Shown here: in pieces, positions 6,638 through 50,078 of the stretch | Layout of the letters: each line of letters opens with the position of its first letter | Position numbering within the stretch: position 1 is the first letter of the stretch | Assembly (NCBI GenBank): GCA_030390025.1 | Contig: CM059432.1 | Location: 61,196,001 to 61,260,000 of the forward strand | Length of the DNA: 64,000 nucleotides | Direction: 5' to 3' | Source of the DNA: Squalus acanthias | Taxonomy: Eukaryota | Notes under the pieces: model-generated | What the model was told of the DNA's origin: nothing | What the model saw: the letters and a program-made list of their open reading frames with translations, nothing else | Database searches by the model: none | Translations under genes and position numbers: made by a program

Positions 6638-7395
6638 AGGGCATGGCATTCTCATCAGCAGGTGGTTGATAATTTTCAACTAACTATACCAGAAGGAAAC
6701 TTCTTACCATTCAAAAGTCTGTATTTATATCTCGTGACCAGCAACTTAAGAAAATACATATTTTTGTGCTGGTTAGCTATATTCTGCAGCAACCATTTCA
6801 TTCAGCCACCACAGATATGCGGTGAAAGGGTAGACTAGAAATTCAGTAAGTACTGTACTCTTTTTTTGGTCAGATGTCTTTGCTTGGTACTTGCATGCAA
6901 AAACCATACAGTGAACCTGTAAATTACAGACACCTAAGGGAATGATATCAGTTGGCCTTTTTTTGCAGATGTCTTTATTTTCAATATGGTCAACGTATGT
7001 ACTGTAAAAATTTCCCCAACAATCTTGAAGAATCAGCTGAGATTATGATCAGCACCTAATCAGCTGCAACAATGCTATGAGCCTAAGTTTGGAAGCAGAT
7101 ATAACAACAAAACTGATGTGTCAAGTACAGTGGAACCTGTTCCTAATGACACTTTCAGATGACAGACAACCGTACTGCATGGGGATTGAGTACGTGCACA
7201 TCTTCTGGGTCCGCGTGGGGTCAGGTGCATGCACATCTTCTGGCGTGCGTCGTCAACAAGCTTGGCTTTGGAAGCAGGGACAGCAGCTGCAGAGGTGATT
7301 CAAACCCCAAAGGCGACAGGGACAGCAGCTGCAGGATGGGGCGCGATTCAAACCCTGATACACGCAGCGACAGCGGCTGCATTGGTGATTCAAAC

Positions 7396-7692: not shown

Positions 7693-7700
7693 TACAGGCA

Positions 7701-8096
7701 GGAACAGCGGCTGCAGGGGTTGATTCAAATCCTGGATACTGGTAGGGACAGCGGCTGCAGGGGTTGATTCAAACCCTGGATACTGGCAGGGACAGCGTCT
7801 ACAGGGGTTGATTCAAACCCTGGATACTGGTAGGGACAGCGGCTGCAGGGGTTGATTCAAACCCTGGATACAGGCAGGGACAGCGGCTGCAGGGGTTGAT
7901 TCAAACCCTGGATACTGGTAGGGACAGCGGCTGCAGGGGTTGATTCAAACCCTGGATACTGGCAGGGACAGCGGCTGCAGGGGTTGATTCAAACCCTGGA
8001 TACTGGTAGGGACAGCGGCTGCAGGGGTTGATTCAAACCCTGGATACTGGCAGGGACAGCGGCTGCAGGGGTTGATTCAAACCCTGGATACTGGCA
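7701..8096. repeat. 44-bp minisatellite, 9 units, plus about 3 degenerate units at 7277-7395
   Basis: Unit GGGACAGCGGCTGCAGGGGTTGATTCAAACCCTGGATACTGGYA starts at 7701, 7745, 7789 ... 8053. Confidence 0.97.
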
Positions 8097-9107
8097 TGGA
8101 CAAAAAGGAATCCATCAGTCATCACAATCTTCAGCCTCAGATACAGTACGTACTTTGAACATTTTAAAGTGTGACATCAGGCTGTGTCCAATGTTTTAAG
8201 GTGCAAAAGGGCTTGGTACATTGAAGGCTGTCCGTTGTTCGTAATTTGTGAGCGTTTGTGGTTTTAGAGTGCCTCTTGTATATTTTATAATGCAAGTTAT
8301 TTGGGTCTGTCAATAATTGCCCATTTTGTGCAAGTGTTGGTTTTTTGGGAGTGTCCATTTATACAGGTTTCACTGTAGCATATAGTAGTCATGATGCACC
8401 AAGACGTAGCTACCAGCTACTTTGTTAAAGTGAAGGACATCTTCTATTCAGTTTTATTCAGTAGCACTGGCACTTGGGGGGCAAAAACTAAAAATCCACT
8501 GAAATGTCACTGCAAATCATGGACAGAAGATTAGGTTGCTGCGAGAATCAACTCTGTTCCAAATTACCACCAGTGGGAATATTATTCTGATTCAGTAATT
8601 AAAGAAGCCTCTAGGAAGTACTCAAAATATCATATCATTGTCAGACCCTTAAGAAAATGATGTTAGGCCCACCTCCCAATTCACAGGCCAGCTGTTGATT
8701 GAAAACAAACAAGCCTACAGTTACTGGGATAAGGTTCACAATACAATTTTTGCAAGGCTTCACATGAGTAACTTATTGAAGCCCAAGGAAGATTACCCTG
8801 TTAAATCATAGCAGTTATTTTTGCAAAAGAAAATTGTACATCTCTGTATGTGATGAAGGCCGCAGCTTTCGATTCAGTACTTGTTTATTTTATCAGATAT
8901 AATGAACAATGCTCCTCACTGGGGTTTGTATTACACTTTGAAAGTATCCTTGGGTTATATCTATACCTCTACTGTATAATTGACTGAAATAACAATTACA
9001 TTTTGGATATAAAAGCAAAACACTGCGGATGCTGGAAATCTGAAATAAAAACAGAAAATGATGAAAATACTCAGCAGGTCAGGCAGCATCTGTGGCGAGT
9101 GAAACAG

Positions 9108-9144
9108 AGTTAACGTTTCAGGTCAATGATCCTTCGTCAGAACT
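9108..9144 (-). ncRNA. Minimal type I hammerhead ribozyme motif (P1), one stem II mismatch
   Basis: Minus strand reads AGTT-CTGACGA-A-GGATC-ATT-GACCT-GAAA-CG-TT-AACT. Confidence 0.7.
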
Positions 9145-9442
9145 GGAAAAAGTTAGAGATGTAACAGATTTTCAAGCAAGTGCAGGTGCAGGGAAAGGGG
9201 GAGGGGAGGAAAGAACAAAAGGGAAGGTCTGTGATAGGGTGGAAGATAGGAGAGATTAAAAGACAAAAGGGATGATGGTGCAAGGCAAAAGGAGATGGTA
9301 ATGGGACAAGTTAAAAAACAAAAGATGACTCTAGATGAGGTGTAAATGGGAATGGCAGAATCATCAACAGCTGCCATGTGAAAAAAAAATAGGGGCAGAA
9401 GTTATGGTCTGAAATTGTTGAACTTGATGTTGACTCCAGAAG

Positions 9443-12400
9443 AGACAGTAGCGGGAATGGTAGCATAATGGTAATGTCACTGGGCTAATAATCCAGAGGC
9501 CTGGACTAATGATCCAGAGATGTGAGTTCAAATCCCACCAGGGCAGCTGGGGAATTTAAATTCAGGTAAATAAATAAATCAGGAATAAAAAGCTAGTATC
9601 AGTAATGGTAACCATGAAACTATCGGATTGTCATAAAAACCCATCTGGTTCACTAATGTCCTTTAGGGAACGAAATCTGCCATCCTTACCTGGTCTGGCC
9701 TATATGTGACTCCAGACCCACAGCACTGTGTTTGACTCTTAACTGCCAATAAAATGGCCTAGCAAGCCACTTAGTTATTACGAAACACAATAATAAGAAT
9801 GAAACTGGACGGACCACCCGGCATCGACCTCGGCACCGGCTACGGACATGGCAACGGCACACCCAGCCCAGTCAATCCTGCAAAGTCCTCTCCACCAACA
9901 TCTGGGGACTTGTGCCAAAATTGGGAGAGCTGTCCAACAGACTAGTCAAGCAATAGTCATACTCACAGAATCATACCTTTCAGCCAATGTCCCAAACTCC
10001 TCCATCACCATCCCTGGGTATGTCCTGTCCCATCGGCAGGACAGACCCACCAGGGGTGGCGGTAGAGTTGGGAAGGAGTGGCCCTGGGAGTCCTCAACAT
10101 TGACTCTGGACCCCATGAAGTCTCATGGCTTCAGGTCAAGCATGGGCAAGGAAACCTCCTGCTGATTACCTCCCTCAGCTGATGAATCAGTACTCCTCCA
10201 TGTTGGACACCACTTGAAAGAAGCACTGAGAGTAGCAAGGGCACAGAATGCACAGGTGGGGGACTTCAATGTCCATCACCAAGAGTGGCTCAGTAGCATT
10301 ACAGCTGGCCAAGTCCTGAAGGACATAGCTGCCAATTTGGGCCTGCGACAGGTGGTGAGAGAACCAACATGAGGGGAAAAACCTACTTGACCTCGTCCTC
10401 ACCAATCTACCTGTGCAGATGCAGTAACCACCACACAGCCATTGTGGAGACTAAGTCACGTCTTCACACTGAGGACACCCTCCATCGTGTTGTGTAGCAC
10501 CACCACCGTGCCAAATGGGATAGATTCAGAACAGATCTAGCAGCTCAAAACTGGGCATCCATGAGGCACTGTGGGCCATCAGCAGCAGCAGAATTGTATT
10601 CCACCACAATCTGTAACCTCATGGCCCAACATATCCCTCACTCTACCATTACCATCAAGCCAGGGGATCAATAAGAAGTGTAGAAGAGCATGCCAGGAGC
10701 AGCACCAGGCGTACCTAAAAATGAGGTGCCAACCTGGGGAAATTGCACCACAGGACGACATGCATGCTAAAAAGCAAAAGCAGCATGCTATAGACAGGGC
10801 TAAGCGATCCCACAATCAACAGATCAGATCAAAGCCCTGCCACATCCAGTCGTGAATGGTGGTGGACCATTAAACAATTAATGGGAGGAGAAGGCTCCAT
10901 GAATATCCCCATCCTCAATGATGGTGGAGCCCAGCACATGAGTGCAAAAGACAAGGCTGAAGAGTTTGCAATCATCTTCAGCCAGAAGTGCCGAGTGGAT
11001 GATCCATATCGGCCTACTCCTGAGGTCCCCACCACCACAGAAGCCAGTCGTCAGCCAATTCGATTCACTCCATTTGATATCAAGAAACGGCTGGGCCCAC
11101 TGGATAGAGCAAAGGCTATTGGCCCCGACAACATCCCAGCTATCATGCTGAAGACTTGTGCTCCAGAACGAGCCTTGCCTCTAGCCAAGCTGTTCCAGTA
11201 CAGCTACAACACTGGCATCAATCCAACAATGTGGAAAACTGCCCAGTTAAGTCCTGTCCACAAAAAGCAGGACAAATCCAATCCAGCCAATTACCGCCCC
11301 ATCAGTCTACTCTCAATCATCAGCAAAGTGATGGAAGGTGTCATCGACAGTGCTACCAAGCGGCACCTGCTCACTAATGCCCAGTTTGGGTTCCGCCAAG
11401 ACCACTTGGCTCCCGACATCATTACAGCCTTGGTCCAAACATGGACAAAGGAGCTGAATTCCAGACATGAGATGAGAGTGGCAGCATTTGACCAAGTGTG
11501 GCATCAAGGAGCCCGAGTAAAACTGAAGTCAATGGGAATCGGGGGGAAAACTCTCCACTGGTTGGAGTCATACCTAGCACAAAGGAAGATGGTTGTGGTG
11601 GTTGAAGGTCAATCCTCAGGGCATCACTGCAGGAGTTCCTCAGGGAAGTGTCCTAAGCCCAACCATCTTCAGCTGCTACATCAATGATCTTCCCTCCAAC
11701 ATAAGATCAGAAATGGGGATGTTCGTTGATGACGGCACAGTGTTCAGTGCCATTCACAACTCCTCAGATAATGAAGCAGTCCATGCCCTTATGCAACAAG
11801 ACCTGGACGACGTTCAGGCTTGGGCTGATAAGTAGCAGGTAACATTCGCGCCAGGCAATGACTATATCCAACAAGCGAGAGTCTAACCACTGCCCCTTGA
11901 CATTCAATGGTATTACCATCGCTGAATCCCCCACCATCAACATCCTGGGGGTCACCATTGACCAGAAACTTATCTGGACCAGCCACATAAATACTGTGGC
12001 AACAAGAGCAGGTCAGAGGCTAGGTATTCTGCAGAGAGTGTCTCTTCTCCTGACTCCCCAAAGCCTTTCCACCAACAACAAGGCACTAGTCAGGAGTGTG
12101 ATGGAATACTCTTCACTTGCCTGGATGAGTGCAGCTCCAACAACACTCAAGAAGCTCAACACCATCCAGGACAAAGCAGCCCGCTTGATTGGCACCCCAT
12201 CCACCACCTTAAACATTCACGCCCTCCACCACCGGCGTACCGTGGCTGCAGTGTGTACCGTCTACAAGATGCACTGCAGCAACTCGCCAAGGCTTCTTCG
12301 GCAGCACCTCCCAAACCCGCGACCTCTTCCACCTAGAAGGACAAGGGCAGCAGGTGCATGGGAACAGCACCACCTCCAAGTTCCCCTCCAAGTCACACCC

Positions 12401-12619
12401 CATCCTGACTTGGAAGTATATCGCCGTTCTTTCATCGTCGCTGGCTCAAAATCCTGGAACTCCCTACCTAACAGCACTGTGGGAGTACCTTTACCACACA
12501 GACTGCAGCGGTTCAAGAAGGTGGCTCACCACCACCTTCTCAAGGGTAATTAGGGATGGGCAATAAATGCTGGCTTTGCCAGCGACGCCCACATCCCACA
12601 AACAAATTTTTAAAAAACA
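9443..12619 (+). mobile_element. Near full-length CR1/L2-group LINE (APE+RT, frameshifted) with tRNA-derived 5' head
   Basis: A box 9461-9471, B box ~9524-9535. APE start (NIWGL...IVILTESYL) at ~9880, RT at 10881-11835, C-terminus to 12553, then 3' UTR and an A-rich end. Confidence 0.88.
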
Positions 12620-12915
12620 GCTGTAAAGTGCCTAATCGAAAGATGAAGTGCTGTTCCTCGAGCTTACGTTGAGCTTCATTGGAACAGTGTAAGAGGCCGA
12701 GGACAGAGAGGGCAGAGTGGGTGTGGAGCGGCGAATTAAAGTGACAGGCGACCGGAAGATTGGGGTCACGCTTACGGACTGAACAGAGGTGTTCCGCAAA
12801 ATGGTCACCCAATCTGCGTTTGGTCTCCCCAATGTAGAGGAGACCTCATCGTGAGCAGCGAATACAGTATACTAAATTGCAAGAAGTACAAGTAAATAGC
12901 TGTTTCACCTGGAAG

Positions 12916-13682
12916 GAGTGAAGTGATGCATTTTGGTAGAAAGAATGAGGAGTGGACATATAAACTAAATGGTACAATCCTAAATGGGTGCATGAACAGA
13001 GAGACCTGGGGGTATGTGTGCATAAATCGTTGAGGGTGGTAGGGCAGGTTGAGAAAGCAGTTAAAAAGGCTTAAGGGATCCTGGGCTTCATAAATAGAAG
13101 TATAGAGTACAAAAGTGTGGAAATTATGATGAACACTGGTTCGGCCCCAATTGGAGTACTGTGTCCAATTCTGGGCACCACACTTTAGGAAGGCTGTGAA
13201 GGCCTTAGAGAAGGTGCAGAAATGATTTACGAGAATGATTCCAGGAATGAGGGACTTCAGTTACATTGACAGACTGGAGAAGCTGGGGTTGTTCTCCTTG
13301 GAGCAGAGAAGATTGAGAGGAGATTTGATAGAGGTGTTCAAAATCATGAGGGGTCTGGACAGGGGAGAAAGAGAGAAACTGTTCCCATTCGCAGAAGGGT
13401 CAAGAACCAGAGGACACAGATTTAAGGTGATTGGCAAAAGAACCAAAGGCGACATAAGAAAAAACTTTTTGCTCAGCAAGTGGTTAAGATCTGGAATGCA
13501 CTGCCTGAAAGGGTGGTGGACGCAGACTCAATCTTATCTTTGAAAAGGGAGTTGGATAAGTAGCTAAAGGAAAAAAAAATTGCAGGGCTACGGGGAAAGA
13601 GCAGGGGAGTGGGACTAGCTGAGAGTCGGCACGGGCTTGATGGGCCGAATGGCCTTCTTCTGTGCTGTAACCATTCTATGAG
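12916..13682 (+). mobile_element. CR1 3' fragment nested in Penelope P1
   Basis: LEKLGLFSLEQRRLRGDLIEVFKI and a CR1 3' UTR ending CCATTCTATG. Confidence 0.9.
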
Positions 13683-16322
13683 TGCTTGGGGCCCTGGACA
13701 GTGGGAAAGGAGGAGGCGCTTGCACGGGAAGGTGCCGTGGGAAGGGGAAGGGTTGTTGGGGGTGATTGAGGAGTGGACCAGGGTGTCGCAGAGGGAGCGG
13801 TACCTTCGTAATGCTGAAAGGGGAGGGGAAGATGTATTGGTGGTGGGAGGGGAAGAGGTGAGAGTAGAAGTGCAGGAAATAGAACGGACACAGTCGAGGG
13901 CCATGTCAACCACGGTGGAGGGGAATCTTCGGTTGAGGAAAAAGGAAGACATATCGGAAGCACTAGTATGGAAGGTGGCATCGTCAGAGTAGATGCGACG
14001 GAGACGAAGAAACTGGGAGAATGGAATAGAGTCCTTACAGGAAGCAAGGTGGGAGGAAGTGTAGTCCAGGTGGCTGTGGGAGTCAGTGGGCTTATAGTGA
14101 ATGTTTGTCAATAGCCTATCCCCATAAATGGAGAAAGAGAAGTCGAGGAAGGGAAAGGAAGAGACAGAAATGGACCATTTGAAGGTGAGGGAAGGGTGGA
14201 AACTGGAAGCAAAGTGAATGAAATTTTCTAGATCAGGGCAAGAGCAGGAAACGGCACCGAGACAGTCATCAATGTACCGGAAAAAGAGGTGAGGGAGGGG
14301 ATCTGAGAACAAAGAATGTTGCACATATCCCACGAAAAGGCAGGCATAGCTAGGACCCATGCGGGTTCCCATAGCAACACCTTTAATTTGGAGGAAGTGA
14401 GTGGAGTCAAAGGAGAAGTTGTTCAATGTGAGTATAAGTTCAGCGAGGCGGAGGGAGGGTGGTGGTGGATGGGGACTGGTTGGGCCTCTGTCCAAGGAAG
14501 AAGCGGAGCGCCCTCAGGCCATCCTGGTAGGGGATGGAGGCATCCTGGTAGGGGATGGAGGTGTAGAGGGATTGGACGTCCATAGTGAAAAGGAGACAGT
14601 TGGGGCCAGGAAACTGGAAACTGTTAAAGTGGTGGAGGGTGTCGGAAGAGTCGCGGATGTAGGTGGGAAGAGACTGAACAAGGGGACAAAAAATAGAGTC
14701 ACGATAGGAAGAAATCAGTTTGATGTGGCAAGAACAGGCTGAAATGATGGGTCTACCAGGGCAGTCCTGTTTGTGGATCTTGGGAAGGAGGTAGAAATAG
14801 GCTGTGCAGGGTTGGGAAACTATGAGGTTGGCAGCCGTGGAGGGAAGATCTCCAGAGCAGATGAGGTCAGTGACAGTCTTGGAAATGATGGCTTGATGTC
14901 CGGTAGTGCGGTCATGGTCCAGGGGGAGGTAGGAGGAGGCATCAGAGAGTTAGCGTTCAGCCTCCACAAGGTAGAGGTCGGTTCGCCAAACAACAATAGC
15001 GCCACCCTTGTCAGCAGGACATCAGCCGTCTCAATTTCTCTGCTCTTCTCCCTCACTCCAACCTACCTCCCTCTGAATTTGCAGCACTCAGTTCTCTCAG
15101 ATCCAACACCAGCATTGTCATTAAACCCGCTGACAAGGGTGGCGCCATTTCTGTCTCCATTTATGGCGATAGGCTATTGACAAACATTCACTATAAGCCC
15201 ACTGACACCCACAGCTACCTGAACTACACTTCCTCCCATCGCTTCCTGTAAGGACTCTATTCCATTCTCCCAGTTTCTCCGTCTCCGTCGCATCTGCTCT
15301 GATGATGCCACCTTCCATACTAGTGCTTCCGATATGTCTTCCTTTTACCTCAACCGAGGATTCCCTTCTACCGTGGTTGACATGGCCCTCAACTGTGACC
15401 GTTCTATTTCCCGCACTTCTGCTCTCACCCCTTTCCCTCCCTCCCAGAACCACGATAGGGTTCCCCTTGTCCTCACCTTTCACCCCACCAGCCTCCACAT
15501 TCAACGTACCATCCTCCGCCACCTCCAGTGTGATCCCACGACCAAACACATCTTCCCCTCCCCTCTCCTTTCAGCATTCCAAAGGGACCGCTCCCTCAGC
15601 GACACTCTGGTCTACTCCTCAATCACCCCCAACATCCCTTCCCCTTCTCACGGCACTTTCCCGTGCAAGCTCAGGAGATGCAACATCTGCCCTTTTACCT
15701 CCTCCCTTCCCACTGTCCACAGCCCCAAACACTCCTTCCAGGTGAAACAGCAATTGTACTTCCTACAATTTACTATACTGTATTTGCTGCTCACGATGCA
15801 GTCTCCTCTACATTGGGGATACCAAACGCAGATTGGTGACCACTTTGCGGAACACCTCCATTCAGTCCGTAAGCGTGACCCCGAGCTTCCGGTCGCCTGT
15901 CACTTTAATTCTCCGCTTCACTCCCACTCTGACCTCTCCGTCCTCGGCCTCTTACACTGTTCCAATGAAGCTCAACGTAAGCTCGAGGAACAGCACCTCA
16001 TCTTTCGATTAGGCACTTTACAGCCTTCTGGACTCAACATCGAGTTCAACAATTTCAGACCATAACCTCTGCCCCTATTTTTTTTTCACATGGCAACTGT
16101 TGATGATTCTGCCATTCCCATTTACACCTCATCTAGACTCATCTTTTGTTTCTTAACTTGTCCCATTACCATCTCTTTTTGCCCTACAACATCATCCCTT
16201 TTGTCTTTTAATCTCTCCTGCCTTCCATCCTATCACAGACCTTCCCTTTTGTTCTTTTCTCCCCTCCCCCTTTCCCTTCCCCTGCACTTGCTTAAAAATC
16301 TGTTACATCTCTAACTTTTTCC

Positions 16323-16359
16323 AGTTCTGACGAACGGTCATCGACCTGAAATGTTAACT
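16323..16359 (+). ncRNA. Minimal hammerhead motif (P1), degenerate
   Basis: AGTT-CTGACGA-A-CGGTC-ATC-GACCT-GAAA-TG-TT-AACT; the AACGTT palindrome and the first stem II pair are mutated. Confidence 0.65.
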
Positions 16360-16619
16360 CTGTTTCTCTCTCCACAGATGCTGTCTGACCTGCTGAATAT
16401 TTCCAGCATTTTCTGTTTTTATTACATTTTGGATACTACTTGATGCGTTGAACTTATAGAACCATAATTTTATTTACATTGCACAGCACATCTTTTTCCT
16501 CCCCTCTTCTCCAGAAAACATGAACATTCGAAATGATGGACAGGAAAAGATCAGATGGTCCATAGAGCCATTCCTATACTGTCATGATGTGACTCCCACC
16601 AACTGCACAATGAAATAAT

Positions 16620-20374: not shown

Positions 20375-23300
20375 ATTAGGGCAGGTGACCAAAAACTTGG
20401 TCAAAGAGGTAGGTTTTAAGGAGCGTCTTAAAAGAGGAAAGAGAGGTAGCGAGGCAGAGAGGTTTAGGCAGGGAATTCCAGAGCTTAGGGCCTAGGCAAC
20501 AGAAGGCACGGCCACCAATGGTTGAGCGATTATAAATCAGGGATGCTCAAGAGGATAGAATTAGAGGAGCGCAGATATCTCGGGAGGTTTTGGGGCTGAA
20601 GGAGATTACAGAGATAGGGAGGGGCGAGGCCATGGAAGGATTTGAAAACAAGGATGAGAATTTTGAAATCGAGGCGTTGTTTAACTGGGAGCCAATGTAG
20701 GACAGCGAGCACAGGGGTGATGGGTGAACGGGACTTGGTGCGAGTTTTTTTTTAATTTGCTTATGGGATCTGGGCGTCGCTGGCAAGGCCAGCATTTATT
20801 GCCCATCCCTAGTTGCCCTTGAGTAGGTGGTGGTGAGCCACCTTCTTGAACCGCTACAGTCCGTGTGGTGAACGTACACCCACAGTGCTGTTAAGTTTGG
20901 AGTTCCAGGATTTTGACCCAGCGACGATGAAGGATCGGCGATCTACTTCTAAGTCAGGATGGTCTGTGACTTGGAGGGGAACTTAGAAGTGGTGGTTTTC
21001 CCATGCGCCTGCTGCCCTTGTCCTTCTAGGTGGAAGAGGTCGCAGGTTTGGGAGGTGCTGCCGAAGAAGCCTTGGCGAGTTGCTGCCGTGCATCTTGTAG
21101 ATGGTGTACACTGCAGCCACAGTACGCCGGTGGTGGAGGGAGTGAATGTTTAAGGTGGTGGATGGGATGCCAATCAAGCAGGCTGCTTTGTCCTGGATGG
21201 TGTCGAGCTTCTTGAGTGTTGTTGGAGCTGCACTCATCCAGGCAAGTGGAGAGTATTCCATCACACTCCTTACTAGTGCCTTGTAGATGGTGGAAAGGCT
21301 TTGGGGAGTCAGGAGGTGAGACACTCGCCGCAGAATACCTAGCCTCTGACCTGCTCCTGTTGCCACAGTATTTATGTGACTGATCCAGTTAAGTTTCTGG
21401 TCAATGGTGACCCCCAGGATGTTGATAGTGAGGATTCGGTGATGGTAATGCCGTTGAATGTCAAGGGGAGGTGGTTAGACGCTCACTTGTTGGAGATAAT
21501 CATTGCTGGCACTTCTGTGGCGCGACTGTTACCTGCCACTTATCAGCCCAAGCCTGAACATCATCCAGGTCTTGTTGCATGCGGTCATGGACTGCTTCAT
21601 TATCTGAGGAGTTGTGAATGGCGCTGAACACTGTGCAGTCATCAGCGAACATCCCCATTTCTGACCTTATGTTGGAGGGAAGGTCATTGATGAAGCAGCT
21701 GAAGATGGTTGGGCCCAGGACACTGCCCTGGGGAACTCCTGTAGCGATGTCCTGGGGCTGTGATGATTGACCTTCAACCACCACAACCATCTTCCTTTGT
21801 GCTAGGTATGACTCCAGCCAGTGGAGCGTTTTCCCCGATTCCCATTGACGTCAGTTTTACTAGGGCTCCTTCATGCCACACTCAGTCAAATGCTGCCTTG
21901 ATGTCAAGGGCAGTCACTCTCACCTCACCTCTGGAATTCAGCTCCTTTGCCCATGTTAGGACATGGGCAGCCGAGTTTTGGATCACCTCAGGTTTACGTA
22001 GGGTAGAATGTGGGAGGCCAGTCAGGAGTGTGTTGGAATAGTCAAGTCTAGAGGTAAGCGGATGAGCTGAGGCAAGGGTGGAAACAGGCGATGTTACGGA
22101 GGTGGAAATAGGCGGTCTTAGTTATGCTGCAGATATGTGGTCGGAAGCTCATTTCAGGGTCAAACATGACACCAAGGTTGCGAACAGTGTGGTTCAGCCT
22201 CAGACAGATGTTAGGGAGAGGGATGGAGTCAGTGGCTAGGGAACGGAGTTTGTGGCGGGGACTGAAAACAATGGTTTCGGTCTTCCCAATATGTAATTGG
22301 AGAAAATTTCTGCCCATCCAGAACAGGATGTCGGACAAGCAGTCTGACAATTTAGAGACCGTGGAGGGGTCAAGAGAAGTGGTAGAGAGCTAGAGCTGGG
22401 TGTCATCAGCGCACATGTGGAAACTGACGCTGTGTTTTCGGATGATGTCGCCAAGGGGCAGCATGTAGATGAGAAATAGGAGGGGGCCAAGGATAGATCC
22501 TTGGGGGACACCAGAGGTAATGATGCAGAAGCGGTAAGAGAAGCCGTTGCAGGTGATTCTCTGGCTACAATTAGATAGATAAGAATGGAACCAGGCGAGA
22601 GCAGTCCCACCCAGCTGGACGATGGTGGGGAGGCGTTGGAGGAGGCTGGAGTGGTCAACCATGTCAAAGGCTGCAGACAAGTCAAGAAGGACGAAGAGGG
22701 ACTGTTTACCTTTGTCACAGTCACAAAGGATGTCATTTGTGATTCTGATGAGAGCCGTTTCGGTACTGTGGCAAGGGCGGAAACCTAATTGGAGGGATTC
22801 AAACATGGAATTACAGGAAAGATGGGCATGGATTTTGGAGGCGACAACACGTTCAAGGACTTTGGAGAGGAAAGGGAGGTTGGAGATGGGGCAGGTAGTT
22901 TGCAAGGACGGAGGGGTCAAGGGTTGTTTTTTTGTGGCGAGGGGCAATGACAGCAGATTTGTGGGAGAGGAGGACAGTACCTGAGGAGAGAGAACCGTTA
23001 ACAATGTCAGCTAATATGGGAGCCAGAAAAGAAAGTTGGGTGGTCAGCAGTTTAGTGGAAATAGGGTCAAAGGAGCAGGAAGTGGGTCTCATGGACAAGA
23101 TGAGCGCGGCGAGGTCATGAGGGGAGATCAGAGAGAAACTGGAGAAAGATGCGAGTTCATAGCTAGGGCAGTGGGGAACCTTAGAGGAAGTTTGGCCTGG
23201 TGGGCTAGGGGCAGGAAGGGAAGTGGCAGAGGCAGCTGAACGGATGGTCTTAATCTTAGAGACAAAGAAATCCGTGAGCTCCTCACACTTGTTGTCAGAG

Positions 23301-24900: not shown

Positions 24901-25502
24901 GAAAAGCTCAGGTTACAGAGGCCTGTTTAAACGTAGTAATTAATGGAATATTTATTTCCTGGTAGCAGGGAATAGGTTGGAGACAATAGTAGGGAGATCA
25001 GGGTCAAAGTCAGAGGTCCCATGGAAGGACAAATCTGACGTAAGCAGGATGGAGCCGGTACGGAGCGTCGACGAACCGCTGTCCAAAGCAGGTGAGTGAA
25101 GTCCAGAAGCTATTTGACGGGTAGAGAGTTCGAGGATGGTGGTTGTTGCTGTAGGAATGAGAGTCGGTAGCGGTGCAGAAAGATGATGGCTAAATTGACG
25201 CAAGTTGGAGGTCACCGTAGATCAAAGCGGTGGAGAAAAAGTAAAGCCATAAGCCAGCGACCAGCAAAGCTGAAAACTGGTAGAATGAGTCACTGGACAG
25301 CAAGTGGAGCAGCAGCTGCTACCTAGAAGCCAGCAGAGCTGAAAAACCAGTAGAACCAGTTCAGCAGAGACACAACCGCAGTTTAAAGGTAAAAATCTTT
25401 TAGCAGTAGAGATATAGAGACACAGCAGGTGTAATTCAGTGTAGTCCAGTGCAGAAACGTAGGGGCCTTTCCACCAATCTTGCCCCAACTAACTTTCTTT
25501 TA

Positions 25503-26014
25503 TGAGAAGTCGCACAACACCAGGTTATAGTCCAACAGATTTATTTAAAGTTACAAGCTTTCGGAGCTATCGCCCCTTCTTCAGGTAAAATTACAATGAG
25601 TGAATCTACAAAAGTTCACAGAATATAAACACAGAAACTGCAGAGATACAATCTTTCCTTACATCAAAGACACACCAAGAGCACAGCCAAGACAATGAGA
25701 TGTGTCCCAGGGGGTCCAACGTGTCAAAACCTGCTGTCTGCAGTGTTTTTTTGGGTTTGTTTTTTGTGGGGGGTTTTTTGTGTTTGTTTTTTAAAAACTG
25801 GAAAGACAGACAACGATGTCAAGTCACGTTCTGTAGCGTGACATGAACCCGATATCCCTATTGAGGCCGTCCTCATGAGTGCGGAACTTGGCTATCAGTT
25901 TCTGCTCGATGATTTTGCGTTGTTGTGTGTCTCGAAGGCCGCCTTGGAGAACGCTAACCCGCAGATCCGAGGCTGAATGCCCTTGACTGCTGAAGTGTTC
26001 CCCGACTGGGAGGC
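25503..26014 (-). mobile_element. Penelope-like family P2 3' fragment with 12-bp TSD
   Basis: GIY-YIG C-terminus LPVGEHFSSQGHSASDLRVSVLQGG...EQKLIAKFRTHEDGLNRD; TSD AACTTTCTTTTA at 25491-25502 and 26015-26026. Confidence 0.88.
25551..25588 (-). ncRNA. Minimal type I hammerhead ribozyme motif (P2), intact core
   Basis: Minus strand reads TTAC-CTGAAGA-A-GGGGC-GATA-GCTCC-GAAA-GC-TT-GTAA. Confidence 0.8.
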
Positions 26015-29451: not shown

Positions 29452-29840
29452 TTTTTTTTATTCGTTCATGGGATGTGGGCGTCACTGGTGAGGCCAGCAT
29501 TTATTGCCCATCCCTGGTTGCCCTTGAGTAGGTGGTGGTGAGCCGACTTCTTGAACTGCTGCAGTCCGTGTGGTGAAGGTACTCCCACAGTGCTGTTAGG
29601 GAGAGAGTTCCAGGATTTTGACCCAGCGACGATGAAGGAACGGCGATATACTTCCAAGTCAGGATGGTGTGTGACTTGGAGGGGAATTTGGAGGTGGTGG
29701 TGGTCCCATGCGCCTGTTGCCCTTGTCCTTCTAGGTGGTAGAGGTCGCGGGTTTGGGAGGTGCTGCCGAAGAAGCCTTGGCGAGTTGCTGCAGTGCATCT
29801 TGTAGACGGTACACACTGCAGCCATGGTACGCCAGTGGTG
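29452..29840 (-). mobile_element. 3' end of the tRNA-headed LINE family
   Basis: Matches 12230-12610. Confidence 0.9.
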
Positions 29841-30329: not shown

Positions 30330-31117
30330 AACCATATGTAGTTATTTGTGCCATTAACTCGTCTATTTTGTTACGAATGCTACGTGCATTCAGATAGAGA
30401 ACTTTCAAATATGCTTTGTGGCACTTAGTTCCTGCTTTTTCACTTTTTACCAGTTTACCTTTTACTCCACACACTCTGTCCCTTCCTGCCACGCTCTGAT
30501 TTGTGATTCCCCTACTGCTACCTATGTCTATTTTTATTTTTTGCTCTCTTGAAACCTCCCCCCCACTAATTAGTTTAAAGCCCTCTCCACAGCCCTAGTT
30601 ATTCGATTCGCCAGGACACTAGTCCCAGCACTGGCCAAGTGAAGTCCGTCCCAACGGAACAGCTCTCTCCTGCCCCAGTACTGGTGCCAGTGTCCCAAGA
30701 AGCAAAACCCATTTTTCCCACACCAGTCTTTGAGCCATGCATTCAACTCCCTGATTTTATTTACCCTAGCCAAATTTGCTCGTGGCTCAGGTAGTAATCC
30801 AGAGATTATTACCCTCGAGGTTCTGCTTTTTAATTTGGCCCCTAGCTGCTCAAACTCCCTCAGCAGAACCTCTTTCCTTGTCCTATCTATGTCATTGGTA
30901 CCAACATGGACCACGACAACTGGATCCTCCCCCTCCCACTCCAAGTTTCTCTCCAGCCCAGAGGAGATGTCCTTAACCCTGGCACCGGGCAGGCAACACA
31001 GCCTTCGGGACTCTCGCTCTTGGCTGCAAAGAAAGAACCCTATCTATCCCCCTAATGATACTATCCCCTACCACTACAACATTTCTTTTTACTCCCCCCA
31101 CTTGAATGGCCCCCCTT
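30330..31117 (-). mobile_element. CR1 ORF1 (SGNH esterase-like) and ORF2 start
   Basis: VVVVHVGTNDI...DGLHL in ORF 30570-30944; ORF2 APE start LYLNARSIRNK. Confidence 0.85.
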
Positions 31118-33000
31118 ACCACTGTTCTGCCCATCTGACCAACCCGTCTATATAGTCCTGTAGCCTGAGGCTTCCCTCCTCGCTATCTACCACCCCACCA
31201 ATTTTCGTGTCATCTGCAAACTAACTGATCATACCTCCTACATCCATATCTAAATCATTAATGTACACTACAAACAGCAAAGGACCCAGCACCGATCCCT
31301 GCGGTACACCACTGGACACAGGCTTCCAGACACAAAAACAACCTTCGACCATCACCCTCTGCCTCCTGCCACTAAGCCAATTTTAGATCCAATGTGCCAA
31401 GTTGCCCTGGATCCCATGGGCTTTTACCTTCTTGAACAGTCTCCCATGCAGGACTTTGTCAAAAGCCTTACTGAAGTCCATGTAGACCACATTAACTGCA
31501 CTACCCTCATCCACACACCTAGTCACCCCCTCGAAAAATTCAATCAAATTGGTCAGACATGATCTCCCCCTGACAAAGCTATGCTGACTATCCTTGATTA
31601 ATCCTTGCCTCTCCAAGTGGAGACTAATTCTGTCCCTCAGAATTTTTTCCAATAATTTCCCTACCACTGATGTTAGGCTCACTGGCCTGTAATTCCCTGG
31701 TTTATCCCTACTACCCTTCTTGAATAATGGTACTACGTTAGCTGTTCTCCAGTCCTCTGGCACTTCCCCTGTGGCCAGAGAGGTTCTGAAAATTTGTGTC
31801 AGAGCCCCTGCAATCTCCTCCCTTGCCTCACACAGCAGCCTGGGATACATCTCGTCTGGGCCTGGGGATTTATCCACTTTTAAGCCTGCTAAAACCGCTA
31901 GTACCTCCTCCCTCTCAATACTAATTTGTTCAAGTATATCACAATCCCCCTGCCTGATTTCTATGCCGACATCGTCCTTCTCCATAGTGAACACAGATGC
32001 AAAATATTCATTTAAAACCCCACCTACATCTTCTGGCTCTACACACAGATTGCCACTTTGGTCCCTAATGGGCCCTACTCTTTCCCTGGTTATCCTCTCG
32101 CCCTTAATATACTTATAAAACACCTTGGGATTTTCCTTTATTTTGCCCGCCAGTGTTTTTTCATGCCCTCTCTTCGCTCTCCTAATTTCCTTTTTAAGTA
32201 CCCCCCTGCACTTTCTATACTCCTCTAGGGCCTCCACTGTTTTTAGTCCTTTGTATCTGCCAAAAGCCTCCCTTTTTTCCCTAATCCATTCTCGTGTATC
32301 CCTTGACATCCAGGGTTCCCTGGGCTTGTTGGTCCCACCCTTGGCCTTTACGGGAACATGTTGGCGTTGTACTTTCTCTATTTCCTTTCTGAAAGACTCC
32401 CACTGCTCTGATGTGGATTTTCCTACAAGTAGCTGATCCCAGTCCACTTTAGCCAGATTCTGCCTTTCATATTAAAATCGGCCTTCCCCCAATTTAGAAC
32501 CTTTATCTCCGGTCCATCTTTGTCCTTTTCCATGACTACCTTAAATCTCACCGAATTATGGTCACTGTCACCAAAATGCTCTCCTACTAACACTTCTACC
32601 ACTTGCCCAGCTACATTCCCTAGAATTAGGTCCAGTACCGCCCCCTCTCTTGTAGGACTTTCTACATGCTGGCTCAAAAAGCTCTCCTGGATGCACTTTA
32701 AGAATTCCGCACCCTCTAAGCCTTTCATACTCTGACTATCCCAGTTAATATTGGGGAAGTTGAAATCCCCTACTATTATTACCCTATTATTTCTACACTT
32801 CTCTGAGATTTGCCTACATATCTGTTCCTCTATCTCCCCCTGACTGTTTGGGGGCCTATAGTACACTCCCAGCAAAGTGCTTGCCCCCTTTTTGTTTTTA
32901 AGTTCTACCCATATGGCCTCATTAGAGGAACCTGCTAAGATATCATCCCTCCTTACAGCAGTAATTGACTCCTTGATTAATATTGCGACACCCCCTACTC
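31118..33000 (-). mobile_element. CR1 ORF2 internal fragment (APE C-half and RT), 3' end missing
   Basis: ORFs 32423-33049 and 31383-32447; very similar to 56047-57860. Confidence 0.92.
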
Positions 33001-33241
33001 TGTCGGACAACCGAGCGCAACGAGTGCTGTCCTCACCAGTGTATTGCATTGCTCGTTATAATATTAAAATCAGCTGCTCACTGATTTTCACCAAGACTAT
33101 TGAACAGTGACTTCAACCCTGAAAGGAATTGTCATTGCTGATCGCTTTCCAGAAATCCAACCCAACACTAACTGTACACTGCCAGCACTAGTGCAAAGTG
33201 GCGGAAGATTTTCCCTAAACTGTGTTGATCTTTTACATAAC

Positions 33242-34261: not shown

Positions 34262-34714
34262 CCAGACTTGGGCACCAGTCCCCAGATGTTAATGAGGAGG
34301 ACTTTTCACAGTCAACATGGGCTCAGTTGCTTGAGTCTTGTTCTGATGTGGTCTGGGCCGTTGTCGATAGGTTCATCCCTTATTTCTCTTGTGACTGTTT
34401 TCTATAGCAATTGTTTACAACTAAGTGGTTTGCTAGGTCATCTCAGTGGCCATTAAGAGTCAACCACATATTATGACACTGGAGTCACGTGTAGGACAGA
34501 CCAGGTAGGGGGGACAGGTTCCCATCCCTGAAGACCATTAGTGAACTAGCTTGGTCTTTACAACAATATTGCAGCTTTGATGGTCAATTTTCCTGGTGCT
34601 AGCTGATAAATGACTAGATTTATTGAATTCCATTTCACAATTTGCCAAGGTGGCATTCAACTCATAACTTCTGGGTTGCTACTCAAGTAGCATAACCACT
34701 ACACTACTGTACCC
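34262..34714 (-). mobile_element. Older 5' end of the tRNA-headed LINE (head, SINE-like body and APE start)
   Basis: The reverse complement aligns by eye to 9450-9925, including TTCACTAATG, GTGACTCCAG and ACATCTGGGGAC. Confidence 0.7.
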
Positions 34715-36740: not shown

Positions 36741-38979
36741 TCTATTACTTTCCTCTGACCACATCCCTCCTTCCAATCTCACCCTTTATCGTGTTTTCAC
36801 TATCCCCTCTGACCTTCCCCTCTCTGAACCCGAATGATCAGACCTCAGCAATGGCCTCAGCTTCATCCCTTACGCCCCCCCACCTCAACGAATTTCGAGC
36901 TCGACGAGATGCTGAGCTCTTCTTCCATCACCTTCGTCTCCGCACCCACTTCTTTGTCCAGACGTCTGCCCCCCGCACAGTGGACCCTTTCTCCCGTCTT
37001 CAGAACTCTCGTTCCACCTGGACCTCTCCCTCTGGCCTCTTACCTTCTCTTGATCTTTTCATTGGGAACTCAATTATTCTGCTCCCCTCACTCACTCTAA
37101 CTTACCTCCCTCTGAACTTGCAGCACTCCGTTCTCTCAAGTCTAACCCTGACACTGTCATTAAACCTGCTAACAAGGGCGGTGCTGGTATTGTTTGACGA
37201 ACAGATCTCTACCTGGTGGAGGCTGAACACCAACTTTCCGACACCTCCTCCTACCTCCCCCTGAACCACGACTCCACCACCGAACATCAAGCCATGGTTT
37301 CCCAGACTGTCACTGACCTCATCTCCTCAGGAGATCTTCCCCGCATAACCTCCAACTTCACAGTCCCGCAACCCCACACAACCCGCTTCTACCTCCATCC
37401 CAAGATCCACAAACCGGCCTGCCTGGAAGACCCATCATTTCAGCTTGTTCTTGCTCCACCGGAACATTTTTCTTCCTATCTCGACTCTATTTTTCTCCCC
37501 TTGTCCAGTCTCTCCCGACCTACATCCGCAACTCTTCTGACGCCCTCCGCCACTTTAACAGTTTGCAGTTTCCTGGCTCTAACCGTCTCCTTTTTACTAT
37601 GGACGACTGGTCCCTCTATACGTCCAACTCCCACCAGGACAGCCTGGAGGTCCTCCGCTTCTTCCTAGAAAGGAGATCCAACCAGTCCGCATTCACCACC
37701 CTCCTCTGCCTGGCTGAACTGATTATTACATTGAAAAACTTCTCATTTGACTCCACTCATTTCCTATAAATTAAAGGCATCACTATGGGAACACATAAGA
37801 GTCCAGCTACGTCTGCCTTTTTGTGGGATACGTGGAACATTCTTTGTTTCAGTCCTGCTCAGGTCCACTCCCTCACCTCTTTTTCCAGTACATTGATGAC
37901 TGTATCAGTGCCGTTTCATGCTCTCGCCCTGAACTAGAAAATGCCATCAACTTTACTTCCAATTTCCACTCCTCCCTTGCCTTCACATAGTCCATCTCCG
38001 TCTCTTCCCTTCCTTTCCTCGACTTCTCTGTCTCCATTTCTGGAGATAGGCTATCGACCAATATCTACTATAAGCCTACCGACTCCCACAGCTACCTTGA
38101 TCACACTTCCTCCAACCCAGTTTCCTGTAAGGACTCTATTCCATTCTACCAGTTTCTCCGTCACATCTGTTTTGACCTTGCCACCTTCCATACCAGAGCT
38201 TCCAATATGTCTTCCTTTTTCCTCAACCGAGGATTCCCCTCCACTGTGGTTGACAAGGCCCTCGACCGTGTCCATCCCATTTCCCACACTTCTTCCCTCA
38301 CTCCTTTGCCTCCCTCCCAGAACCACGATAGAGTCCCCCTTATCCTCACCCTCTACCCCACCAGCCTCCACAATCAACGGATCATCCTCCACCACTTCCA
38401 CGACCTCCAGCGCGATGCCACCACCAAACAAATCTTTCCCTCCCCTTTCAGCATTTCGACGGGACCGCTCCCTCTGCGACACCCTGATCTACTCTTCCAT
38501 CACCCCCAACACTGGTTCCCCTATCCCACGGCACCGTTCTGTGCAAACACAGGAGATGTAAAACCTGCGCTTTCACCTCCTCCCTTCCCACCATCCAGGG
38601 TCCCAAACACTGCTTCCAGGTGAAACAGCGATTTAGTCGCACTTCTTTCAATTAGTATACTGTATTCGCTGCTCACAATGCAGTCTCCTCTACATTCTCC
38701 GTCCCACTCTAACCTCTCTGTCCTCGGCCTCTTACACTGTTCCAATGAAGCTCAGAGGAAGCTCAATGAACAGCACCTCATTTTCGATTAGGCACTTTAC
38801 AACTTTCCAGACTCAACATTGATTTTAATAACTTCATATACATAACCACTGCTCCCATTTTTTCGGACAGCAGGTGCTGGTAATGGTTCTGCAGTTGACA
38901 TTTGCAGCTCCTCCATCCCCCATCATTAGTTTCTTTACTTATCCCATTACTATCCCTTTTGCCTTGCACCATCACCCTT

Positions 38980-40682
38980 TTTCTTCCCCTAGCCCACTGG
39001 GCCAAACTTCCGCTAAGGTCCCCCCCTGCCCTAGCCCCGATCTCCCCTCATAATCTCTCTGCGCTCATCTTGTCTATGAGACCCACCTCCTGCTCCCTCG
39101 ACCCTATTCCCACCAAACTGCTGACCACCCAACTTCCTTTTCTGGCTCCCATGTTAGCTGATATTGTCAATGGTTCTCTCTCCACAGGTACTGTCCCCCT
39201 CTCCCTCAAATCTGCCCTCATCACCCCTCTCCTCAAAAAACAAACCTTGATCCCTCCGTTCTTGCAAACTACCGCCCCATCTCCAACCTCCCTTTCCTCT
39301 CCAAAGTCCTTGAACGTGTTGTCACCTCCCAAATCCATGCCCATCATGCAATTCCTTGTTTGAATCCCTCCAATCAGGTTTCCGCCCTTGCCACAGTACC
39401 TGAAACGGCTCTCAACAAAGTCATAAATGACATCCTTTGTGACTGTGACAAAGGTAAACTGTCCCTCCTCGTCCTTCTTGACTTGTCTGCAGCCTTTGAC
39501 ATGGTTGACCACTCCATCCTTCTCCAACGCCTCTCCACCGTCGTGCAGCTGGGTGGGACTGCACTCGCCTGGTTCCATTCTTATCTATCTAATCGTAACC
39601 AGAGAATCACCTGCAATGGCTTCTCTTCCCGCTCCCGCATCATTACCTCTGGTGTCCCCCAAGGATCTATCCTTGGCCCCCTCCTATTTCTCATCTACAT
39701 GTTGCCCCTTGGCAACATCATCCGAAAACACAGCGTCAGTTTCCACATGTGCGCTGATGACACCCAGCTCTAGCTCACTACCTCTTCTCTCAACCCCTTC
39801 ACGGTGTCTAAATTGTCAGACTGCTTGTCCGACATCCTGTTCTGGATGAGCAAAAATTTTCTCCATTCGGTCCCCGCCACAAACTCCAATCCCTAGCCAC
39901 TGACTCCATCTCTCTCCCTAACATCTGTCTGAGGCTGAACCACACTGTTCACAACCTTGGTGTCATATTTTACCCTGGAATGAGCTCCCGACCACATATC
40001 CACAGCATAACAAAGACCACCTACTTCCACCTCTGTAACATCGCCCGTCTCCACCTTTGTCTCAGCTCATCTGCTGCTGAAACCCTCATCCATGCCTTTG
40101 TTACCTCTAGACTTGATTATTCCAATGCACTCCTGGCTGGCCTCCCACATTCCACCCGATGTAAACTTGAGGTCATCCAAAACTCAGCTGCCCGTGTCCT
40201 AACTCGCACCAAGTCCCGTTCGCCCATCACCCCTGTGCTTGCTGACCTACATTGGCTCCCGGTTAAGCAACGCCTCGATTTCAAAATTCTCATCCTTGTT
40301 TTCAATTCCTTCCATGGTCTCGCCCCTCCCTATCTCTGTAATCTCCTTCAGCTCCACAATCCCCCGCGATATCTGCGCTCCTCTAATTCTGCCCTCTTGA
40401 GCATCCCTGATTATAATCGCTCAACCATTGGTGGCCGTGCCTTCTGTTGCCTAGGCCCTAAGCTCTGGAATTCCCTGCCTAAACCTGTCCGATCGCTACC
40501 TCTCTTTCCTCCTTTAAGACGCTGCTTAAAACCTACCTCTTTGACCAAGCTTTTGGTCACCTGCCCTAATTTATCCTTATGTGGATCGGTGTCAAATTTT
40601 TTGTCTTAAAATACTCCTGTGCAGCGCCTTGGGACGTTTTACTATGTTAAAGGCGCTATATAAATACAAGATGTTGTTGTTT
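38980..40682 (+). mobile_element. 5'-truncated L2 nested in Penelope
   Basis: Same family as 20375-24900; ends in (TTG)n. Confidence 0.9.
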
Positions 40683-45556: not shown

Positions 45557-45776
45557 TGGACAAATGTGAGAAGTCGCACAACAGCAGGTTATAGTCCAAC
45601 AGGTTTATTTGAAATCACAAGCTTTCGGAGCGCTGCTCCTTCGTCACTTCACCTGACGAAGGAGCAGCGCTCCGAAAGCTTGTGATTTCAAATAAACCTG
45701 TTGGACTATAACCTGGTGTTGTGCGACTTCTCACATTTGTCCACCCCAGTCCAACACCGTCATCTCCACATCATGA
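45557..45776. mobile_element. Mini Penelope P2 hairpin insertion
   Basis: 90-bp inverted arms 45557-45646 / 45654-45743 (one mismatch) plus a tail; TSD CTATATAATTGGA at 45548-45560 and 45777-45789. Confidence 0.92.
45649..45685 (+). ncRNA. Minimal type I hammerhead ribozyme motif (P2), intact
   Basis: TCAC-CTGACGA-A-GGAGC-AGC-GCTCC-GAAA-GC-TT-GTGA, with palindromic AAGCTT in place of stem III. Confidence 0.85.
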
Positions 45777-48700: not shown

Positions 48701-49127
48701 GATTGGAACATGTGGCCAGGGGGAGGAGAAGGGCCATGAGGGCTGCTTGAGTCATCTGGCTCCTTCTCCCTGACCTGCTGCTGCTGGCTGAGACATCTGC
48801 ACAGCCAGCAATGATGAGAATGAGGTTCTGCAGCATCAATGAACTGAAAAGAGCCTGCGGCAATGATGACTTGTGATTAGACTGCACCTGATATTGCTCA
48901 GCGCTTTGAGTTTAACGCCACTGAGCTAGGGCATTAGCACTTGATTTAGCGCTCCAATCCTTTCTTTGTGCAATGAGACTGAATTTTGCATGCAGTCTGA
49001 AGCAATAGCGCATGGCGCTAATTCTCAAACTTTTCAGAAGTTACCGCCCATTCCTGGGCTATAATGAATTTCTCCCCCATAATCTGCTCAATTTTTGTTT
49101 AGCTGTTTGTTTTAATTTCACATTTTG

Positions 49128-50078
49128 TTTTAATTCATTCACGGGATGTGGGCGTCACTGGCAAGGCCAGCATTTATTGCCCATCCTTAATTGTCTTTGA
49201 GAAGGTGGTGGTGAGCTGCCTTCTTGAACCGCCACAGTCTGTGTTGGGAAGGTACTCCTACAGTGCTCTTAGGTAGGGAGTTCCAAGATTTTGACCCAGC
49301 GACGATGAAGGAATGGCGATATATTTCCAAGTCAGGGTGGTGTGTGACTTGGAGTGGAACTTGGAGGTGGTGGTGTTCGCAGGTGCCCTTGTCCTTCTAG
49401 GTGGTAGAGGCCGTGGGTTTGGGAGGCGCTATCGAAGAAGCGTTGGCGAGTTGCTGCAGTGCATCTTGTAGGTGGTACACACTGCAGACACAGTGCACCG
49501 TGGTGGAGGGAGTGAATGTTTAAGGTGGTGGATGAGGTGTTAATCAAGTGGGCTGCTTTGTCCTGGATGGTGTCGAGCTTCTTGAGTGTACTCATCCAAG
49601 CCAGTGATGAGTATTCCATCACACTCCTGACTTGTGCCTTGTAGGTGGTGGAAAGGAGTCAGGAGGTGAGCCACTTGTTGCAGAATACCCAGCCTCTGAT
49701 CTGCTCTTGTCGCCACAGTATTTATGTGGCTGGTCCAGTTAAGTTTCTGGTCAATGGTGACTTTCAGGATGTTGATGGTGGGAGATTTGACGATGGTAAT
49801 GACATTGAATGTCAAGGAGAGGTAGTTAGATTTTCTCTTGTTGGAGATGATCATTGCCTGGCGCTTGTGTGGCGCAAATGTTACTTGCCATTTATCAGCC
49901 CAAGCCTGAATGTTGTCCAGGTCTTGCTGCACGCAGGCACGGACTGCATCATTATCTGAGGAATTGTAAATGGAACTGAACACTGTGCAATCATCAGCGA
50001 ACATCCCCACTTCTGACCTTATGATGAAGGGAAGGTCATTGATGAAGCAGCTGAAGATGGTTGGGCCTAAGACACTGC
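49128..50078 (-). mobile_element. 3' fragment of the tRNA-headed LINE family
   Basis: SVLGPTIF...FADD through the 3' UTR. Confidence 0.9.

Follow-up and report, generated by a model that had tools for sequence, protein, structure and literature searches.

The DNA considered in this study (the window) is a stretch of 64,000 nucleotides from Squalus acanthias, positions 61,196,001 to 61,260,000 of the forward strand of contig CM059432.1 in GenBank assembly GCA_030390025.1, and all coordinates given below are positions within it. The element of interest, at 9443..12619 of the plus strand, belongs to elasmobranch Zenon, a long interspersed nuclear element (LINE) of the CR1 group; it is a full-length copy, decayed and dead, and it opens with a head derived from a transfer RNA (tRNA) that carries the A and B boxes of an RNA polymerase III (Pol III) promoter. 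I propose that elasmobranch Zenon is a LINE of about 3.3 kb with just one open reading frame (ORF) and a head captured from a short interspersed nuclear element (SINE), and that it is transcribed by Pol III. Judged from sequence, this explanation has slightly better than an even chance of being right; its structural part alone, leaving Pol III aside, is nearly certain. An earlier interpretation of the letters alone (the sequence-only reading) had placed here an element of about 3.2 kb made up of head, body, APE endonuclease domain, reverse transcriptase (RT) domain and 3' untranslated region (UTR), and that composition is confirmed, within limits set by two empty sites.

Those limits come from the repeat that the element interrupts. 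The 3,177 nt form a single insertion that splits a host repeat on the minus strand, whose left part (9041..9442) is 93% identical to 16426-16025 and continues in the right part (12620..12920), 91.7% identical to 16024-15730. In a blastn-type comparison of the window with itself, the left flank maps to position 16025 and the right flank to position 16024 of an unbroken copy, and a second empty site of the host repeat lies within the window near 38810/38804. The same site was found in public contigs from four runs, in which joints were sought at a likeness of at least 80% with sides of 21-56 letters: among the joints listed (15 of 4,549), the joint from 9442 to 12620 appears in all four runs (in at least 2, 14, 4 and 5 contigs). 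No target-site duplication is present at the 9443/12619 junctions. Ten additional bases at the 5' junction (9443..9452, plus strand) are absent from the empty site and, as judged by eye, from the start of the published Zenon consensuses, which begin at about 9453, a correction to the start given by the sequence-only reading. I take the host repeat to be Penelope-like because of a GIY-YIG-like motif in a minus-strand frame at 12543-12845, where Pfam gave no match.

The head (9453..9540, plus strand) consists of an A box (TAGCATAATGG, 9461-9471), a hairpin resembling an anticodon arm (9480-9496), an extra hairpin (about 9498-9518) and a B box (GAGTTCAAATCC, 9524-9535). Positions 9460-9539 align with positions 7-64 of the 71 in the Rfam tRNA model, at 27 bits (E-value 0.013) where the gathering score is 29, and the acceptor stem lies outside the match. 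Since the A and B boxes are retained and the acceptor stem is unmatched, the pattern is that of a promoter rather than of a tRNA, and ARAGORN's failure to call a tRNA gene at the head is expected of a derived sequence. An A-box/B-box pattern matches three places on the two strands of the window: the Zenon head, a SINE at 43218 (minus strand) and one site at 25187. The possibility that RNase P had trimmed a host transcript to give the 5' end was set aside, the acceptor stem being unmatched. The extra hairpin, which lies between the anticodon arm and the T arm, looks like a second, duplicated anticodon arm. On both sides of its stem the S. acanthias (SquAca) consensuses differ from those labelled CarCar, RhiTyp and ScyCan, with the loop kept (by eye), and the hairpin is partly missing from the ray consensus and missing altogether from an older copy in the window.

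Following the head is a SINE-like body (9541..9776, plus strand), and with it the A box, B box and body of about 250 nt described by the sequence-only reading are all present. Between the two headed copies of the window, conservation is highest in the 3' part of the body, 9627-9776 (76.7% identity to 34567-34419 over 150 nt, E-value 2e-25). Neither head nor body folds better than shuffled sequences (z-scores -0.10, 0.07 and 0.19). A body of the Meta-domain type was dropped as a candidate after comparison by eye with the BivaMeta/BivaMD alignments and with two UCON3 rows, in which neither the Meta domain nor the UCON3 domain was seen after the head. The element has one of the marks of a SINE2, a head derived from a tRNA and equipped with both boxes (its Rfam score just below the gathering cut-off), and lacks another: it is neither short nor non-coding, at 3,177 nt with APE and RT, and only the joined short forms described below, of about 400-450 nt, would fit. 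In sequence, in the plan of its ORF and in its tail the element is a Zenon, not a SINE; its transcription may be SINE-like.

The family to which it belongs was described recently (Stuart et al. 2026, PMC13343379). Zenon consensuses were reported from five elasmobranchs, coelacanth and hagfish, all of them lacking ORF1 and ending in a poly-A tail; the elasmobranch Zenons were said to be missing from repeat repositories. The survey records no Zenon for chimaera, skate or sawfish. I compared by eye the first 400 nt of each sequence in Table S2 of that paper. Head, body and linker open all seven elasmobranch Zenons (CarCar, HypSab, RhiTyp and ScyCan Zenon-1, and SquAca Zenon-1, -2 and -3), which are 2,886-3,314 nt long and come from five species in four shark orders and one ray order. 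None of the three Zenons of hagfish (two) and coelacanth (one) shares this opening. SquAca_Zenon-1 is nearly identical in this region to 9453-9850. Six B-box 10-mers occur six times in the first 400 nt of 1,003 CR1-group consensuses, every time in an elasmobranch Zenon. The window copy resembles the published family in its 5' 400 nt, its length (3.2-3.3 kb), its single ORF for APE and RT without ORF1 and its poly-A tail, the last seen in all four window copies; I find no structural difference and regard it as a decayed member.

Because head, body and linker are shared by all seven elasmobranch consensuses, the linkage of head to APE is supported as a fixed structure of the family rather than an adjacency, and the suspicion that chance was not involved is borne out. 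The sequence-only reading had named as contrary to itself full-length copies with an ORF1, with a different 5' end or with head-APE junctions that vary; neither the window copies nor the seven consensuses show any of these. The family (2026), its missing ORF1 and its poly-A tail are known already; the head, fixed across sharks and rays, has apparently gone unremarked. The main text of PMC13343379 contains the words "tRNA" and "polymerase" not at all and "SINE" once, and does not mention A or B boxes, the lack of T runs or the short forms. I found no description of a tRNA-headed or Pol III-driven Zenon in the open-access literature, Repbase, Dfam and subscription journals being outside the search.

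Within the window, the second headed copy is an older 5' piece of a related element (34262..34714, minus strand), comprising a head without the extra hairpin and with a B box one base short, a body, a linker and the first APE codons. It is collinear with the main copy from 34714 to 34262, a span that takes in the head, the body, the linker and the first dozen codons of APE; it ends after the start of APE and upholds the claim that a diverged copy shows the same linkage. The local alignment scores are 33 for the head, 162 for the body and 71 for linker plus APE, against maxima of 30, 33 and 32 in 500 shuffles; the head match by itself is weak, and the other two are strong. Three more copies on the minus strand are 5'-truncated: 20744..21962 (88.8% identity over 1,222 nt), 49123..50076 (84.8% over 962 nt) and 29452..29840 (92.4% over 381 nt). 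No contig piece spans head to APE among those listed (32 of 462,520), so the evidence for this link comes from copies in the window and from the consensuses in print.

The linker (9777..9881, plus strand) leads to the first APE motif near 9882-9890, about 110 nt past the end of the body at about 9776, close to the 100 nt or so first estimated. The APE domain (9882..10641, plus strand) is frameshifted and was recognized by tblastn and by Pfam PF14529, the latter below cut-off (E-value 0.00034). The RT domain and C-terminal part (10794..12553, plus strand) lie in three frames, with matches by tblastn and by PF00078 (above cut-off in two pieces), the motif FVDD at about 11722-11733 and the stop codon at 12551-12553. 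Several stops and frame changes thus break the ORF. In the PDB the only matches are weak ones to L1 ORF2. The longest AUG-initiated frame in the approximately 430 nt between the start of the element and APE has 48 codons, and there is accordingly no ORF1. On this point the sequence-only reading was right about the absence and wrong to be surprised by it: Zenon ordinarily has none ("universally lacked ORF1", PMC13343379), and this half of the finding was already known.

The manner in which the APE frame is opened deserves separate attention. The 48-codon frame (9799-9945) is opened by an AUG at 9799 in the linker and overlaps the start of APE out of frame, and the APE frame itself passes through an Arg-rich stretch of the linker. 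The AUG frame of the ray consensus is likewise offset from its APE frame (by eye); in the older window copy the codons that match the AUG frame lie in the APE frame, with stops; and several relatives have an AUG at, or slightly 5' of, the start of APE. Differences among the published consensuses, as judged by eye, fall mostly on third codon positions of the 9799-9945 frame, and for this reason there is a hint that the frame may be translated, with a frameshift leading into APE. No stable structure was found 3' of the possible frameshift place (z-score 0.40).

At the other end, a stem-loop in the 3' UTR (12554..12600, plus strand; z-score -4.37 for 12520-12619) holds the sequence AATAAA in its internal loop. 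It is common to the three 5'-truncated window copies and the short forms, and is kept in all four copies without two-sided changes. The decayed poly-A tail follows (12601..12619, plus strand), and loose ends of A-tails stand behind 12596-12598 in contigs of all four runs. Contig depth in the two runs of DNA type rose at the 3' end and stayed about even across the head and the start of APE, but such depth cannot rank the parts of a gene and is given no weight; the other two runs, only presumably of RNA, show neither start nor strand. The contigs also contain forms that exit the element at about 9747-9776, joining the end of the body to the last 75-110 nt. Among the joints listed, that from 9747 to 12543 was found in all four runs (at least 2, 7, 2 and 2 contigs), joints to 12511 in at least three, joints to 12526 in at least two and the joint from 9776 to 12515 in at least one; some joints carry body-like letters in between. 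Short forms that combine Zenon's head with its tail, as predicted, therefore exist as contig joints in four of four runs; none is present within the window. The several distinct junctions suggest that short forms arose repeatedly. Since Zenons outside the elasmobranchs are headless, the sequences tend to suggest that the head was acquired from an older SINE and that deletions may then have produced new SINEs.

If Pol III transcribes the whole element, its terminator, a run of four or more T (T4+), should be scarce in the sense strand, and a scan for such runs had been proposed from the outset. From 9453 to 12600 there is no TTTT in 3,148 nt; the sole T4+ run (12607-12611) lies inside the decayed tail and was left out of the count. 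The five Zenon pieces of the window have no T4+ run among them (6,112 nt, tails excluded), as compared to 2-14 in each of the nine other LINE pieces (53 in 13,269 nt). The T content is 18-25% in the former and 22-29% in the latter. Homopolymer runs of four were observed and expected, respectively, as follows: 15 and 16.1 for A, 11 and 13.7 for C, 10 and 6.3 for G, and 0 and 4.4 for T. If codons were used as in the other LINEs of the window, 4.1 T4 runs would be expected (probability of none 0.0075); shuffles of synonymous codons within single ORF pieces give no significance (probability of none 0.31-1.0 per piece). Related loci from metagenomes numbered 80, of which 57 had an ORF of at least 1,500 nt and were used for the count; none of the 57 ORFs is free of T4 runs. 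The only locus within the clade of the Zenon copy, and its nearest relative with DNA (L001), has 36 in its ORF, and its 5' end is rich in T and lacks a tRNA-like head. Another tRNA-headed element of the window, a separate SINE of 423 nt, is like the Zenon pieces in having no T4 run. Selection against Pol III terminators would account for the lack of T4 runs, as would a C-rich, Phe-poor ORF.

The events would then have been these. Before sharks and rays split, a tRNA-derived SINE would have supplied its head and body in place of the 5' UTR of a Zenon. TFIIIC would bind the two internal boxes, and Pol III would start at about 9453, read some 3.3 kb to the 3' end, there being no T4+ runs in the sense strand, and stop in flanking DNA. 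The uncapped RNA would be translated in an unusual way, by a non-AUG start, a frameshift out of the frame of the AUG at 9799 or re-initiation. Its protein would bind the 3' stem-loop and poly-A and insert a copy, mostly 5'-truncated, by target-primed reverse transcription, which is established for LINEs of the CR1 group. RNAs that join the end of the body to the last 75-110 nt would spread as SINEs sharing the element's head and tail. The full claim, that of an autonomous coding element transcribed by Pol III from end to end, with an ORF purged of terminators and an uncapped translation without AUG, spawning SINEs since the ancestor of sharks and rays, I advance more tentatively, at a little under an even chance.

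A number of considerations weigh against Pol III. Its products are normally short and uncapped, and the loss of one base from the B box, seen in both the older window copy and the seventh consensus (that of the ray, HypSab; the consensuses drop bases elsewhere too), would weaken its promoter. The APE frame of the Zenon copy, with its Arg-rich extension, has no in-frame AUG. Judged by nulls built from the element itself, the absence of T4 runs is borderline (P = 0.017 by base shuffle, 0.08 by dinucleotides, 0.065 by its own codon usage), third codon positions in Zenon are C-rich, T-poor control ORFs go as low as 2 T4 runs in 3,054 nt (L040), and the counts are not independent, because the five Zenon pieces overlap one another and, among the nine controls, two are 95% identical. 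The AATAAA, invariant in the four copies and 30-45 nt 5' of the tail, fits processing of a transcript of RNA polymerase II (Pol II), though some Pol III SINE RNAs reportedly use AATAAA as well. Finally, non-LTR (long terminal repeat) elements are stated to be transcribed by Pol II, and the length of SINEs to be limited (PMC10886601).

Much of this would be explained if Pol II made the headed family, from a promoter in head or body or by read-through from host genes, an alternative that is possible, though in my judgement probably wrong. The SINE piece would have been captured once and kept as a Pol II promoter, as an RNA structure for translation or as a passenger, and the lack of TTTT would come from C-rich codons and little Phe, for which the P values of 0.065-0.08 leave room. 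The shortened B box and the constant AATAAA suit this alternative, as do lepidopteran Zenon and its derivative Persaeus, whose machinery works without a Pol III promoter (PMC6740152), and the two-sided stem changes in the extra hairpin, judged by eye, hint at a role at the level of RNA. What Pol II does not readily account for is that in seven of seven consensuses the family begins where the tRNA-like sequence begins, just where Pol III would start, that six of the seven retain a full B box, and that the runs missing are those of T alone, not of A, C or G.

It is improbable, but conceivable, that the roles are split: Pol III would make the long template RNA, in effect that of a giant SINE, and the protein would come from Pol II read-through of other copies. 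The absence of an AUG opening the APE frame of the window copy would agree with this, as would the poor translation of Pol III RNA. Intact ORFs are also few in the published table (3/612, 0/2313, 1/1419, 1/294, 0/59 and 0/396; PMC13343379). An ORF acting only in trans should decay, however, and yet the headed consensuses of five species keep an RT coverage of 76-100% at more than 84% identity (PMC13343379). That there is no family at all, only one-off SINE-LINE chimeras made by template switching (as are known for L1) or SINEs lying by chance beside truncated LINEs, is hardly credible and already largely refuted: SINEs with the Zenon head and truncated LINE copies are both abundant, but the same junction and linker recur in all seven consensuses from five species and in the much older window copy, the insertion is single and clean with an empty site, and no SINE tail is present at the junction.

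Comparison with known systems helps to place the headed Zenon. Lepidopteran Zenon is likewise a single-ORF LINE of the CR1 type, about 3.3 kb long with poly-A, and yields short derivatives made of its 5' and 3' ends (PMC6740152). One of these, the internally deleted Persaeus, shows neither homology to tRNAs nor a Pol III promoter, unlike the short forms of sharks, which look like true SINEs because the 5' end they share is tRNA-derived. A tRNA-like sequence within a LINE has a precedent in RTE-1_DAn and kindred elements, where the consensus matches many SINE2 elements; these belong to the RTE clade, and the match was filtered out as accidental (PMC5786205). The bipartite SINEs Bov-tA, CoeSINE4 and SINE2_Gav (PMC5786205) combine a tRNA head with pieces and the tail of a partner LINE, as do the Zenon short forms, but in them the head sits on a deleted, non-coding LINE derivative, whereas in Zenon it sits on a complete coding LINE. 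Among cartilaginous fishes, tRNA heads with A and B boxes are found in SacSINE1 (Deu, with an L2 tail), the CmiSINEs (CORE) and HE1 (V) (PMC5499810, PMC4824008); SacSINE1 and the CmiSINEs have L2-type tails, a comparison made from their descriptions, not from their sequences. Cassandra, Helenus and Ajax, the TRIMp3 elements, are also retrotransposons with a Pol III promoter from a small RNA, but of the LTR type, non-coding and 0.3-1.3 kb long (PMC10886601).

The standard division makes LINEs units of Pol II and SINEs units of Pol III (PMC10886601, PMC5786205). A high-copy APE-RT family headed by a tRNA promoter would, if Pol III does transcribe it, break that division, and headed Zenon offers a direct test of whether Pol III makes a functional mRNA of 3.3 kb and of how such an mRNA is translated. 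It would also provide a second route to the birth of SINEs: once a LINE carries a head, one step of deletion turns it into a SINE, the opposite of the usual course, where SINEs borrow from LINEs. Even under Pol II the head matters for annotation, because the 5' end of the LINE and the SINE mask each other.

The proteins closest to the Zenon copy are fragmentary and come from gene models of sharks and rays (65-80% identity); full-length APE-RT proteins follow at 35-45%. Its RT falls in a clade of 15 rows, separate from the window's other LINEs, with support of 99 by the Shimodaira-Hasegawa-like approximate likelihood ratio test, in a quick tree of 57 rows that includes no labelled Zenon protein. 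That clade contains a full-length protein labelled as from the protist Lithocolla globosa (P0008) and another from Branchiostoma (P0005); it may reach beyond animals, or the Lithocolla record may be contaminated. A 24-nt motif of the body had no matches in genome contigs or viral contigs, and the protein profile found no relative in viral contigs. Head, body and tail gave no blastn match to the 80 related metagenome loci, and ARAGORN found no tRNA in any of the 44 of these that were tested. A loose A/B-box pattern matches four of the 80 (L004, L026 at position 9, L058 and L062 at position 1226), likely by chance or through flanking SINEs.

The window consists mostly of nested retroelements. 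Besides Zenon there are long pieces of other CR1-group LINEs at 641-2546, 31116-33013, 43217-44961, 45734-47849 and 55323-57861. The complete tRNA-headed SINE already mentioned (43230-42808, minus strand), with its own A and B boxes, is lodged in a CR1-type LINE and has no blastn match to the Zenon head or body; I presume it to be of the HE1/V-SINE type. Further copies of the Penelope-like repeat occur at 13680-16426 and 37165-38985, some arranged head to head, and another LINE piece, at 12918-13681, also sits in this repeat. Near-perfect palindromic repeats of 160-280 nt, partly interrelated and resembling miniature inverted-repeat transposable elements, are found at 45557-45743, 58557-58719, 63721-64000 and 25494-25589. 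Finally, a tandem array of an 88-nt unit, its copies 91-97% identical, occupies 7693-8102 and is related to the sequence at 7274-7395.

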